Origin: an uncultured Gammaproteobacteria bacterium
Lineage (GTDB): Bacteria > Patescibacteriota > Patescibacteriia > Magasanikbacterales > UBA922
NCBI GenBank assembly: GCA_964597575.1
Contig: CAZQXB010000001.1
Coordinates: 64,964 to 128,963 of the forward strand
DNA length: 64,000 bases
Direction of reading: 5' to 3'
The position numbers and the translations under genes are program-made. The notes below the pieces were generated by a model. The model had not been told where the DNA came from. It did no database searches and saw only the letters and a program-made list of their open reading frames with translations. This document shows positions 41,283 through 42,318 of this stretch, piece after piece. How positions within the stretch are numbered: the first letter of the stretch is position 1; each line of letters opens with the position of its first letter.

Positions 41283-41357
41283 GCCGTGGTAGCTCAGTGG
41301 TAGAGCAGAGGACTGAAAATCCTTGTGTCGCCAGTTCAATCCTGGCCCGCGGCACCA
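41283..41357 (+). tRNA. tRNA-Phe (anticodon GAA), CCA encoded
   Basis: GCCGTGG acceptor. Anticodon loop CTGAAAA. T-arm GCCAGTTCAATCCTGGC. 3' CCGCGGCACCA. Confidence 0.9.
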
Positions 41358-41406
41358 TAAAATAAGTACTCTCCCTTGTGGGGAGTATTTATTTTATTCG
41401 TGTTAC

Positions 41407-41541
41407 GGCCAGGATTGAACTAAGGGAAAGTTTGAAAACCGATAGGTTTTCACTTCTGCTAGGGGAAGGTTAGGAAGGGGTGGAAACCCCTTCCTAAGAG
41501 TCTGAATTTTATTCAGAGGAGTGAAATCCTGGCCCGCGGCA
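41407..41541 (+). repeat. tRNA-trailer structured element E2 (tRNA-Phe): inverted T-arm copy, two hairpins, direct 3'-end copy
   Basis: Starts GGCCAGGATTGAACT, the exact reverse complement of tRNA-Phe AGTTCAATCCTGGCC. Ends ATCCTGGCCCGCGGCA, a copy of the tRNA 3' end. Hairpins GAAAACC-gata-GGTTTTC and GGAAGGGG-tggaaa-CCCCTTCC. Own terminator at 41545-41578. Confidence 0.5.
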
Positions 41542-41616
41542 CTGACAAACAAGACTGTTACGGTCTTGTTTTGTTTTACGGAAAAGAAGCTTGTAAACAG
41601 AAAGGGGGCTTGCCCC

Positions 41617-41645
41617 TTGAAATAAATTTGGATATCATATATACT
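41617..41645 (+). promoter_or_regulatory. tRNA-Pro promoter TTGAAA-N17-TATACT
   Basis: Hexamers with 17-nt spacer about 15 nt upstream of tRNA-Pro. Confidence 0.45.
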
Positions 41646-41660
41646 CCCTGCAGTAAAAAA

Positions 41661-41734
41661 CGGGCTGTGGCTCAATTGGCTAGAGTGCCTGGTTTGGGAC
41701 CAGGAGGTTGTGGGTTCAAGTCCCACCAGCCCGA
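41661..41734 (+). tRNA. tRNA-Pro (anticodon TGG)
   Basis: C1-G72 first pair (CGGGCTG/CAGCCCG) typical of bacterial tRNA-Pro. Anticodon loop TTTGGGA with G37. T-arm GTGGGTTCAAGTCCCAC. Confidence 0.85.
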
Positions 41735-41790
41735 CACAATAAATAAGTCCTTCTTAACCGAGAGGGACTTATTTATTTTTTTTGGATTGA

Positions 41791-41901
41791 GGACTTGAAC
41801 CCAGAAGGGGGTCGGGGAAACAGTTGCTTCCCCGTGGCGGATTCTTGAAACCGAGGGGTTTCAAAAGGAGCGAAGCGACGTGTGAAAGTCCCCAGCCCGA
41901 C
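41791..41901 (+). repeat. tRNA-trailer structured element E3 (tRNA-Pro, proximal copy)
   Basis: Starts GGACTTGAACCC (reverse complement of the tRNA-Pro T-arm). 66-nt core 41801-41866 matches 54048-54113 with only 2 mismatches. Ends AGTCCCCAGCCCGAC (copy of the tRNA 3' end). Own terminator at 41908-41940. Confidence 0.5.
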
Positions 41902-41979
41902 TAACATAAAACTTCTCTTGCGAGAAGTTTTATATTTTATTTGGAGAGCCGAGCGACCTAATAGTTTAGGTCTCGAGTA

Positions 41980-42098
41980 GGACTTGAACGCCGGAGCGAT
42001 GTTTTGCGAACACGTTGGTGAGCAAAACCACGAGGCGATGGCCAGCCCGAGGAGGAGGAAACCGACAGGGGCAAGACCAAGGACCACAGAGCCCGACA
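41980..42098 (+). repeat. tRNA-trailer structured element E4 (tRNA-Pro, distal copy)
   Basis: Starts GGACTTGAACG. Internal hairpin GTTTTGC..GCAAAAC. Ends CAGAGCCCGACA followed by AGATAAATAAGTCCTTCT, matching the tRNA-Pro 3' end plus the 5' half of its terminator. Confidence 0.45.
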
Positions 42099-42318
42099 AG
42101 ATAAATAAGTCCTTCTCATTGAGGAGGAGGCTTATTTATCTTGTTGAATTGAGAGCTTTGAATCGGAATAAGGAGGGCGAAATAGTTGTTTGGTTTTAAA
42201 CTCTTACAAAAGGGAAATTCTTGCCGGACATGTCTGTGATTTATCTATCCACATCTTCGTTGGAAAAGGCATACTTATGAAGTACACTAAATAAAAGTTC
42301 ATTTTAGCATTCGTTTCT

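Follow-up and report, generated by a model that had tools for sequence, protein, structure and literature searches.

A gene-less repeat element with target-derived arms at tRNA and protein-gene ends, probably a non-autonomous insertion element of Patescibacteria

Introduction

Insertion with long target duplication, described by Nobusato, Furuta and Kobayashi, places foreign DNA between variable direct repeats of the target that are 30 to several hundred bp long (PMC2853133). The inserts carry no transposase or integrase, are found mostly in naturally competent bacteria and sometimes lie at tRNA genes or overlapping gene 3' ends; they are kilobase-scale, unique restriction-modification gene cassettes (PMC2853133). 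This is the closest described phenomenon to the element reported here, which occurs in a stretch of 64,000 nucleotides from contig CAZQXB010000001.1 of an uncultured bacterium of the patescibacterial lineage (assembly GCA_964597575.1; the whole stretch is hereafter called the window). In the window the element forms units behind tRNA genes, each with a hairpin core between an inverted copy (X') and a direct copy (X) of the end of the host tRNA gene. In our view the units are probably copies of one insertion element, non-autonomous and structure-dependent, with a wide distribution in Patescibacteria. Both phenomena show a target repeat that is long and variable, and neither brings a mobility gene: here the repeat exceeds 30 bp at some loci, empty sites exist in relatives and no mobility gene accompanies the units. 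The element differs in being one conserved ~85-nt non-coding multicopy module with an additional inverted copy of the target.

Integration of phages and of integrative and conjugative elements at tRNA genes likewise leaves the tRNA intact and produces a direct repeat of its 3' end that starts in a loop (T-loop or anticodon loop). The units differ from such integrants in the absence of an integrase and of cargo, in their length of ~150-200 nt, in the inverted target copy, and in the range of targets, since many tRNAs and also protein genes are hit and the arms are re-specified each time. The DNA between the repeats is ~150-250 nt long and non-coding, and a serine recombinase gene was found near a single locus, L107.

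The small dispersed repeats of bacteria, such as MITEs (miniature inverted-repeat transposable elements), repetitive extragenic palindromes and bacterial interspersed mosaic elements (REP/BIME), Correia elements, Rickettsia palindromic elements (RPEs), RUP and BOX, are similar in being short, non-coding, hairpin-rich, multicopy, often intergenic and assembly-breaking. Insertion of RPEs in genes, including that of tmRNA, is tolerated in Rickettsia. MITEs have fixed terminal inverted repeats and a short fixed target duplication (2-10 bp), whereas here the arms are derived from the target and differ at every locus, and the duplication is variable and 12-62 nt long; the initial annotation was therefore right that this is not a classical transposon with terminal inverted repeats. 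No recurrent transposase that could be an autonomous partner lies within 3 kb of 118 copies, and the IS1595-family gene of the window is unrelated to the units in position. REP/BIME are 20-40-nt palindromes with a conserved 5' tetranucleotide and an associated RAYT transposase, in contrast to a core of 75-130 nt with two or three hairpins; no RAYT gene was found near the copies.

Two further kinds of system are alike in their folded form. In single-stranded sites such as attP(+) of the CTX phage and integron attC, and in Rep/HUH integration, a hairpin stem reproduces the double-stranded target; CTX attP(+), attC and adeno-associated virus (AAV) depend on a single fixed target together with a known recombinase or Rep protein, neither of which was found here. 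As an analogy only, replication and template-switch models of AAV integration at AAVS1 give duplicated or inverted target segments. The msr-msd region of retrons is similar in its a1/a2 closing stem, G-rich start, conserved hairpins followed by a variable longer hairpin, and length of 100-200 nt. A closing stem of this type, of 10-24 bp, is formed here by X' and X, but it is copied from the neighbouring gene; in further contrast to retrons, the units have no adjacent reverse transcriptase and no Rfam retron match, and they are dispersed and multicopy. The element is thus a small dispersed non-autonomous repeat in the broad sense and fits none of the transposon, intron and integrative classes tested. 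The view of the initial annotation that no equivalent has been described agrees with our searches of Rfam and of the literature (full text), which returned no description of the element; a paper on group I introns in tRNA genes of Patescibacteria does not describe it either. This hairpin-rich repeat of roughly 85-130 nt appears to be previously undescribed.

Units of the window

Nine tRNA genes were identified in the window by ARAGORN and Rfam, five on the plus and four on the minus strand, and these tRNAs alone pass the Rfam gathering threshold. Four of the five plus-strand tRNAs are followed by units (Leu, Phe, Pro with two units, and Cys; five units in total), tRNA-Ala being the exception, and no unit was found at the four minus-strand tRNAs. 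The order is tRNA, a terminator-like hairpin (T1), X' (inverted T-loop and T-stem), the hairpin core, X (direct tRNA 3' end) and a second terminator-like hairpin (T2). This five-unit architecture, first proposed in the initial annotation, was recovered at the same positions by ARAGORN, Rfam, blastn and inspection of the sequence. The absence of units from minus-strand tRNAs, also pointed out there, holds within the window and does not amount to a rule, as the orientation of units follows the target gene and not the strand of the replicon. The host tRNAs are complete and have normal scores (Rfam).

Unit behind tRNA-Leu (E_Leu), plus strand:
13733..13816, plus strand: tRNA-Leu(UAA), intact host gene of E_Leu (ARAGORN; Rfam 59.6 bits)
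13817..13855, plus strand: T1 of Leu, an A-tract, hairpin and T-tract (sequence)
13868..13879, plus strand: X' (GGGACTCGAACC), exact reverse complement of tRNA-Leu G52-C63 (blastn, matches 13805-13794)
13880..13985, plus strand: core of a divergent subtype (sequence, fold; weak covariance-model match, 12.4 bits), with hairpin 1 at 13890-13914 (GGGAAAAC..GGTTTTCCC), hairpin 2 at 13936-13959 and the 3' motif GGAGTGGGGCGACGAGTGAGAT at 13964-13985
13986..14002, plus strand: X, copy of the T-stem 3' strand, acceptor 3' strand and discriminator (blastn; repeat family D6)
14003..14042, plus strand: T2 of E_Leu (sequence)

Unit behind tRNA-Phe (E_Phe), plus strand:
41283..41357, plus strand: tRNA-Phe(GAA), host gene of E_Phe (ARAGORN, Rfam)
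41357..41398, plus strand: T1 of tRNA-Phe, stem at 41371-41385 (terminator prediction)
41400..41421, plus strand: X', with an exact 15-nt reverse complement of the T-loop/T-stem at 41407-41421 (blastn, fold) and an outer part at 41400-41406 that complements the acceptor 3' strand in degenerate form, with C-to-T changes
41422..41524, plus strand: core of a divergent subtype (sequence, fold), with hairpin 1 at 41433-41452, hairpin 2 at 41472-41495, hairpin 3 at 41501-41517 and the 3' junction GAGGAGTGAAAT
41525..41542, plus strand: X, exact 18-nt copy of the tRNA-Phe 3' end (A57-A73 plus C; blastn)
41547..41577, plus strand: T2 of E_Phe (terminator prediction)

Units behind tRNA-Pro (E_Pro1 and E_Pro2), plus strand:
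41661..41735, plus strand: tRNA-Pro(UGG), host of both units, with its own promoter at 41617-41645 (ARAGORN, Rfam, promoter prediction)
41738..41783, plus strand: T1 of tRNA-Pro, 18-pair stem (terminator prediction)
41791..41802, plus strand: X' of E_Pro1 (GGACTTGAACCC), reverse complement of the tRNA-Pro T-loop (blastn)
41803..41886, plus strand: canonical core of E_Pro1 (covariance model R1, 78.3 bits, E 2e-19; 97% identity to the Cys core), with AGAAGGGGGTC, hairpin 1 at 41814-41833, the linker GTGGCGGA, hairpin 2 at 41845-41864 and the motif GGAGCGAAGCGAC
41887..41901, plus strand: X of E_Pro1, imperfect copy of the tRNA-Pro 3' end (sequence)
41906..41933, plus strand: T2 of E_Pro1 (terminator prediction)
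41943..42098, plus strand: E_Pro2, degenerate or divergent (sequence; fold z -2.7; no significant covariance-model match), with the remnant GGAGAGCCGAGCGAC at 41943-41957, X' GGACTTGAAC at 41980-41989, a different hairpin core and AGCCCGAC(A) from 42090
42101..42139, plus strand: T3, similar to T1 of tRNA-Pro (sequence, terminator prediction)

Unit behind tRNA-Cys (E_Cys), plus strand:
53909..53981, plus strand: tRNA-Cys(GCA), host gene of E_Cys (ARAGORN, Rfam)
53982..54021, plus strand: T1 of tRNA-Cys (sequence)
54036..54049, plus strand: X' (GTGGGAATTGAACC; blastn)
54050..54146, plus strand: canonical core (covariance model R1, 85.7 bits, E 2e-21), with hairpin 1 at 54061-54080, hairpin 2 at 54092-54111 and the 3' junction GCGAGTAGTGAAATTA
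54147..54170, plus strand: X, exact 24-nt repeat of the tRNA-Cys 3' end and 12 nt of flank (repeat family D20)
54161..54197, plus strand: T2 of E_Cys (sequence)

The exact inverted copies detected by blastn are 12 nt long at Leu (13868-13879), 15 nt at Phe (41407-41421), 13 nt at Pro1 (41791-41803) and 14 nt at Cys (54036-54049). Direct copies measure 14 nt at Leu, 18 nt at Phe (41525-41542), about 15 nt with mismatches at Pro1 (41887-41901) and 24 nt at Cys (54147-54170), where the repeat extends 12 nt beyond the tRNA end. The cores of Pro1 and Cys align over 66 nt with 97% identity (blastn), and those of Leu and Phe have 39-44 nt in common at 86-90% identity; Pro2 follows the same arm logic and has a different, degenerate core. 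Terminator-like hairpins flank every unit, with 11 found against 1.6 expected in 41050-42350. Single-strand folds are more stable than those of shuffled sequences for Leu (z -3.1), Phe (z -7.1), Cys (z -3.8) and Pro2 (z -2.7); the Pro1 fold is no better than its shuffles (z -1.0). No promoter was predicted for the units, which sit behind terminators.

An origin of the inverted T-loop from a minus-strand, split or intron-containing tRNA was rejected; the T-loop has no minus-strand T-stem, and the upstream tRNAs are complete (ARAGORN, Rfam and inspection by eye). An encoded CCA is missing from all checked host tRNA genes except tRNA-Phe, and CA(A)n comes next instead.

The element family and its core

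One genome per GTDB species was scanned for GGGGAAAC-N4-8-TTCCCCGTGGCGG, which corresponds to hairpin 1 and the linker of the Pro1 and Cys cores. The scan returned 116 stretches compared with about one expected (a rough estimate), nearly all in metagenome-assembled genomes (MAGs) labelled as Patescibacteria or candidate phyla radiation (CPR). These labels, taken as deposited, include Jorgensen-, Lipton-, Kaiser-, Azam-, Nomura- and Uhrbacteria, Paceibacteria, 'Saccharibacteria' and Minisyncoccia. Several genomes hold 6-12 motif loci each, the maximum being 12. At least 18 matches lie within ~150 nt of a contig end, as expected because dispersed repeats break assemblies, and Logan contigs that carry window proteins terminate at units. 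The exact 21-nt search motif biases the wider set towards one subfamily and, by keeping hairpin 1 invariant, makes this hairpin uninformative in it; many copies are related by descent, and statistics over copies overstate their independence. Matches in Alphaproteobacteria CMAR1, Streptomyces and Planctomycetaceae lack the remainder of the core and were set aside as unrelated or chance.

The full core motif reads GGGAAGGGGGUC, hairpin GGGGAAAC..GUUUCCCC, GUGGCGGA, a hairpin with ..AACCGNNGGGUU.., and GGAGCGA..GCGAC. The consensus begins with GGGAAGGGGGUC, followed by hairpin 1 (an 8-bp stem, mostly with a GNRA loop), GUGGCGGA(G/A) and hairpin 2 of the form N4-AACC-GNNG-GGUU-N4', and ends with GGAGCGA, an optional variable hairpin 3 and GCGAC. 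The core is about 75-130 nt long, with two or three distinct hairpins and conserved purine-rich single-stranded joiners, and is directly abutted by the X'/X closing stem of 10-24 bp. In some CPR genomes it is embedded in mosaics with other hairpin modules. Over 45 nt outside the search motif, identity is 0.77 within genomes and 0.47 between genomes, so that the multicopy variants are genome-specific. Runs of G at the 5' side are not conserved among the window copies, and a G-quadruplex formed by them was rejected on these grounds.

Covariance model R1, built from canonical copies, detects Pro1 (78 bits) and Cys (86 bits) strongly; Leu and Phe score 12-16 bits and are matched on both strands. 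Judged by their sequences, the Leu and Phe units would belong to the same family, because their hairpin 1 (GGGAAAAC..GTTTTCCC) resembles the canonical one and because the counterpart of E_Phe in a related locus (L118) carries the canonical 3' module with the GGAGCGTAGCGAC motif (AAGAGGAGCGTAGCGACGAGTGAAAT, compared with AAAAGGAGCGAAGCGACGTGTGAAAG in Pro1).

Hairpin 2 is under selection for its structure, which is strongly supported by an alignment of 52 distinct copies. Its four outer pairs show three or four pair types each, and 99.8% of cells are paired. Double-sided changes number 90 as against 33 in column shuffles, none of 500 shuffles reaches the observed value, and pairing is lost when the partner is slid by 1-3 columns. 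The pair-preserving changes noted in the initial annotation stand for the wider family, where covariation of hairpin 2 is strong; the window itself holds a single one, G.U in Leu versus G-C in Phe, and hairpin 1 of Pro1 has an A.C mismatch. Among arm mismatches read on the core-sense strand, G.U exceeds A.C (85 versus 53, p = 0.008, over copies that are not independent), which hints that an RNA stem on the sense strand matters.

These structural features bear on a second explanation, namely that the units encode a structured RNA beneficial to the host. It would be transcribed by read-through and form a junction whose closing helix mimics the acceptor/T-arm minihelix of tRNA, and it could serve as a decoy or substrate for RNase P, RNase Z, the CCA-adding enzyme or toxins, or modulate 3' processing or termination. 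We regard this explanation, including the functions named, as unlikely, even though covariation of hairpin 2 and, on the core-sense strand, the preference for G.U over A.C and the mostly GNRA-type loop of hairpin 1 speak for it. The lack of a promoter and the strong terminators preceding the units speak against it, as do the multicopy, genome-specific and assembly-breaking character of the copies.

Targets and locus-specific arms

Among the 118 motif copies, 47 have a tRNA on the same strand no more than 200 nt upstream, and these tRNAs cover 13 amino-acid identities. Two copies are preceded by tmRNA, and one unit adjoins the 5' end of an opposite-strand tRNA (L037). Units are also present at 5' ends of protein genes: of fusA-like (L033, L115) and typA/lepA-like (L096) GTPase genes at the AH(I/V)D-xGKT codons, of metG at NADP-HIGH (L060) and of rnhA at GNPG (L091, L111). 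The 3' ends of open reading frames (ORFs) carry units in L006 and L075. At every non-tRNA site the layout, in the orientation of the core, is intact gene end X, spacer, X', core, X and flank. Because the same core and arms occur at these sites, the common denominator is not a tRNA; it is a position near a gene end that starts in a highly conserved motif. A tRNA-linked role, as implied by the initial annotation, is not supported; what the annotation had itself named as evidence against such a role is provided by these sites at tmRNA, at the 5' ends of fusA/typA-like genes, metG and rnhA, and at ORF 3' ends. They also weigh against a host RNA, since the core lies antisense at the protein-gene 5' ends and is found at ORF 3' ends.

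In the protein-gene units the duplicate begins at the insertion point, reaches to the start codon and measures at most 62 nt. A stub ORF crosses the reverse complement of the core and ends 0-20 nt from the genuine start codon; mutual complementarity is limited to the 13-17-nt arms, and the copied segment is antisense to the mRNA. The stub and the live gene at L060 differ as orthologues do (MDKRAY.. versus MNKKFY..).

The arms are specific to their locus. At 40 further loci, X' matches its own tRNA at 5.6 of the 7 variable positions 59-65 and other tRNAs at 3.7 of 7, so the match is not an artefact of the T-loop consensus and the ends derive from the host tRNA, as originally claimed. Against the acceptor strand the 5' arm is a degenerate complement (5.5 of 11 positions for its own tRNA, 4.6 of 11 for others). 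It pairs well only with the T-stem/T-loop part, the acceptor part being degenerate in most copies, and arm pairing over the full length is found in few copies (24 bp in L107, 23 bp in L005). The inner 12-15 bp of the X'/X stem are intact while the outer part decays, which would also suit a host RNA. The 3' arm is the exact 3' strand of the tRNA.

The same data bear on whether the arms could be decayed tandem tRNA duplications or chance similarities. Conserved T-loops do give some chance matches, as the 3.7 of 7 for control tRNAs shows. Yet the arms are separated by a conserved 85-nt core unrelated to tRNA, they match their own tRNA far better than other tRNAs, and protein genes show the same design. 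Conservation of the family, covariation of hairpin 2 and own-tRNA matching of the arms effectively refute this explanation.

Filled and empty sites in relatives

Syntenic metagenome loci were recovered through the potassium/proton antiporter gene upstream of the tRNA-Ala-Phe-Pro cluster. In L118, with 76% protein identity of the transporter, a unit is found behind tRNA-Phe and just a terminator behind tRNA-Pro, compared with two units in the window. Stem changes between E_Phe of the window and its L118 counterpart are compensated. In three further loci (L123, L124, L135; 50-56% identity) the sites are empty: the clusters are compact, and gaps of 4-36 nt separate the tRNAs. L122 has a 355-nt insert behind tRNA-Ala instead. 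Exact-protein look-ups for polymorphism within the species gave nothing or contigs ending at units.

Patchy presence and likeness within genomes are traits of an insertion element that proliferates or is homogenised within genomes, and not of a conserved trailer. The trailer RNA linked to tRNAs, as first envisaged, is not supported by comparison with relatives that have the same synteny and lack units (the Pro site of L118; L123, L124 and L135). For a host-beneficial RNA in general the evidence is divided: E_Phe was kept in L118 with compensatory stem changes, but the units are patchy among relatives with identical synteny.

Shape of the duplication

The 3' arm and the intact gene end share exact direct repeats of 12-62 nt, which vary by locus. 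Repeats of 35-62 nt are present at six loci (L033, L041, L036, L061, L011, L078), and many copies now retain only 12-24 identical nt. In 42 tRNA-linked units the pseudo-copy nearly always reproduces the final ~15 nt of the tRNA without change; past the tRNA end, identity is ~0.5 over the next 12 nt, which are A-rich, and ~0.3 beyond. The identity of X to the tRNA 3' end with a sharp drop right past it would also be expected of a host RNA. The pseudo-copies lack CCA. In a minority of loci (L036, L041, L077, L078, L061, L011) the terminator is repeated too.

Two histories fit these profiles. The duplication may first have spanned the gene end and the terminator, with unselected parts diverging and X held by gene conversion or selection. 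Alternatively, one gene end and its terminator may have come from a different genome by recombination in conserved sequence; this would also account for the invariable start of X in a universally conserved motif and for the orthologue-like differences between stubs and live genes (e.g. L060).

The ~85 nt between T-loop and core amount to a single long imperfect palindrome in about 40 of the 49 tRNA-linked copies; we attribute this palindrome to X', a bidirectional terminator and a degenerate complement of the acceptor strand. The T1 hairpins are ordinary, with 4-5-nt loops such as UUCG and GAAA, and zero-spacer palindromes are absent. A snap-back origin of T1, with the centre of the palindrome as a turnaround of the polymerase, was dropped in view of these ordinary loops and of the restriction of protein-gene complementarity to 13-17-nt arms. 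In four genomes (L078, L074, L011, L061) a second unit X-T-X' has only the first 3-27 nt of the core and continues into unrelated DNA, and may result from run-on or rolling synthesis in the sense direction. Such tandem and truncated copies are a further argument against a host RNA.

Other small inserts with similar features were observed. In L009 (~7480-7560), a nested 47-nt insert separates the T-stem part from the acceptor part of X in a tRNA-Arg unit. Relatives L121 (3921-4028 and 4104-4220) and L125 (6096-6216) carry other small inserts with a similar duplication of the gene end: a ~35-nt hairpin (TCAGCCAAAGGCTGA..GGCTAG) at the D-loop position, preceded by a duplicated tRNA-Pro 5' end, and a 31-nt hairpin within the T-loop of a duplicated tRNA-Pro 3' fragment. 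Duplication of gene ends around tiny inserts may be a general habit of the clade.

Partner enzymes and a possible integrative origin

All-against-all clustering of ORFs found no protein gene that recurs within 3 kb of 118 copies; the clusters obtained consist just of spurious ORFs through the core and of the targeted GTPase genes. Any enzyme must therefore act in trans. Searches of 30 window ORFs with Pfam and nine with NCBIfam found no mobility gene other than the IS1595-family transposase, which is distant from the units. This gene (DDE_Tnp_IS1595 with a zinc ribbon; 23152-23994, minus strand) adjoins tRNA-Arg and is unrelated to the units; 32-nt direct repeats (GGCAACTATCCCTTTACAACAAGTA..) at 21154-21185 and 24075-24126 may be its ends.

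No unit has a match in Rfam 15, even at E <= 1-10, including group I and group II introns and the cores of small self-cleaving ribozymes; matches to group I introns in L015 and L103 lie elsewhere in those loci. An RNase P RNA in L010 (5447-5877) scores below the Rfam gathering threshold (78 versus 100 bits).

The units could be miniature integrative elements or remnants of attachment sites, produced by a recombinase that integrates a small circle or hairpin bringing a replacement gene end; X'-core-X would then be a folded attP-like site, comparable to the single-strand attP of the CTX phage and to integron attC. Direct duplication of a tRNA 3' end around foreign DNA next to an intact tRNA is the classical signature of integration, and terminators that differ while X is identical are expected if one of them is donor-derived. 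In L107 a large serine recombinase ORF (3923-5632; Resolvase, Recombinase and Zn-ribbon domains) runs into the element, ending inside a 24-nt X' arm and core, and the unit is attached to an orphan tRNA 3' fragment; here an integrative element probably landed in a repeated tRNA end. We nevertheless think an integrative origin of the family improbable. No integrase recurs within 3 kb of the 118 copies, the motif has no match in 2.9 million viral contigs, and core and X are at most ~160 nt apart in the tRNA-linked copies that were examined, with no larger cargo seen. A single recombinase would also have to recognise unrelated targets (T-loop, GTPase G1, HIGH), and the arms are re-specified for each of them. 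An origin from phages in particular was rejected by the absence of the core motif from the viral contigs.

Proposed mode of insertion

In the insertion-element interpretation, the element would enter a conserved site near a gene terminus. Its 5' side carries X', a 10-24-nt inverted copy of the target at the insertion point, and its 3' side X, a direct copy of the target from the insertion point to or beyond the gene end; the upstream gene end is intact. The target is thus present threefold (direct, short inverted, direct), and the gene survives whether it is a tRNA gene hit in the T-loop or a protein gene with the hit no more than ~60 nt from its start or stop. We speculate that the target serves as template for the arms during insertion, through copy-choice or a template switch at a broken strand, with a DNA polymerase (after a nick) or a reverse transcriptase (on the core RNA) supplied in trans; any specific version of this arm synthesis seems rather doubtful. 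The X'/X stem and the core hairpins could be the form recognised by the machinery, either as RNA or as single-stranded DNA.

A unit once formed may move to the equivalent conserved site of another genome through homologous recombination that follows DNA uptake, with the conserved gene body and the repeated X acting as homology arms; CPR bacteria are naturally competent. Such spread would account for the start of X in universally conserved motifs (T-loop, GTPase G1, HIGH, and RNase H DGG..GNPG) and for the difference between the two terminators although X is identical. Tentatively, the whole could be a new mode of insertion, in which a ~85-nt gene-less element regenerates the gene end by a templated direct-inverted-direct triplication, acquires a target-made closing stem and spreads by recombination.

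A more specific alternative is a retroelement resembling short interspersed nuclear elements (SINEs). The RNA in the core sense, with a tRNA-like 3' helix, would be copied by a reverse transcriptase acting in trans, template switching onto or from cellular RNA or DNA would make the arms, and the cDNA would recombine at the cognate gene; in Neurospora mitochondria, hybrid cDNAs of retroplasmid and tRNA reportedly integrate by recombination. The long and variable target duplication, the frequent coincidence of its boundary with the tRNA 3' end and the G.U bias, which suggests a stem at the RNA level on the core-sense strand, are in line with this scheme. The same is true of the 3'-truncated second units, which fit aborted 5'-to-3' synthesis of the sense strand or run-on copying. 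CPR genomes are moreover rich in reverse transcriptases. No reverse transcriptase was found, however, near the copies examined or among the window ORFs scanned, the units have no promoter of their own, the pseudo-copies lack CCA, and a simple RNA template does not explain copied segments that are antisense to the mRNA of protein genes. A SINE-like origin consequently has little probability.

Several points weigh against interpreting the units as an insertion element. The near-identity of X to the tRNA over its last ~15 nt, with unrelated sequence just past the end, could reflect a host function or gene conversion, and so could the retention of the E_Phe counterpart where the neighbouring transporter is only 76% identical. 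High similarity within genomes could likewise stem from gene conversion rather than transposition. The truncated second units at four loci are predicted by no simple insertion model, and the interpretation does not account for how arms are made anew at every target. Neither the 3-kb flanks nor the window ORFs scanned yielded a transposase, reverse transcriptase or nuclease as partner. A fresh insertion with an unambiguous empty-site counterpart at nucleotide resolution was not obtained.

Genomic context of the window

The window has a G+C content of ~45%, resembles a bacterial chromosome and encodes housekeeping functions (transketolase, PolA, DnaA/DnaN, PBP1A, RuvB and a class II ribonucleotide reductase). 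The dnaN and dnaA genes lie at 46666-49505 on the minus strand, with rpsT, holA and polA around them in the annotation of a Logan contig, which places the replication origin probably near 49.5-50.1 kb; the cumulative GC skew has its minimum near 34 kb, unlike the dnaA-based position. Units flank dnaA/dnaN (46.7-49.5 kb) on both sides, each oriented as its tRNA, and an orientation set by replication was rejected because units on either side share the orientation of their tRNAs.

Two antisense ORFs of 107 and 108 aa, obtained mechanically at 41403-41726 and 41773-42099 on the minus strand, cross the region of the tRNAs and the element. As the C-rich complement of the core has no stop codons, spurious ORFs of this kind are expected in CPR annotations.

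The window also contains a tRNA (uracil-5)-methyltransferase-like gene at 642-1916 and an RmuC-family gene at 25099-26199, both on the plus strand and both common genes. The former family recognises the T-loop, and RmuC proteins are implicated in limiting recombination at short inverted repeats. A perfect 22-nt palindrome, TTGTATACAC(T/A)AGTGTATACAA, occurs in four intergenic copies (24390-24418, 25003-25031, 33431-33459, 33629-33657) and looks like an operator or recombination-site motif.

Implications

CPR bacteria, or Patescibacteria, account for a large part of the diversity of bacteria, and their tiny genomes leave little space for junk. The element nevertheless occupies many termini of tRNA, tmRNA and essential genes in this group and fragments assemblies. 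Its recognition would improve the assembly and annotation of MAGs, in which it gives rise to spurious ORFs, pseudo-tRNA fragments and duplicated N-terminal stubs. The conserved core provides a clean marker for CPR lineages and is a candidate RNA associated with a protein or a ribozyme. Insertion of this kind, in which the interrupted gene is rebuilt and the target supplies the arms, may point to a new enzyme activity or to spread driven by transformation.

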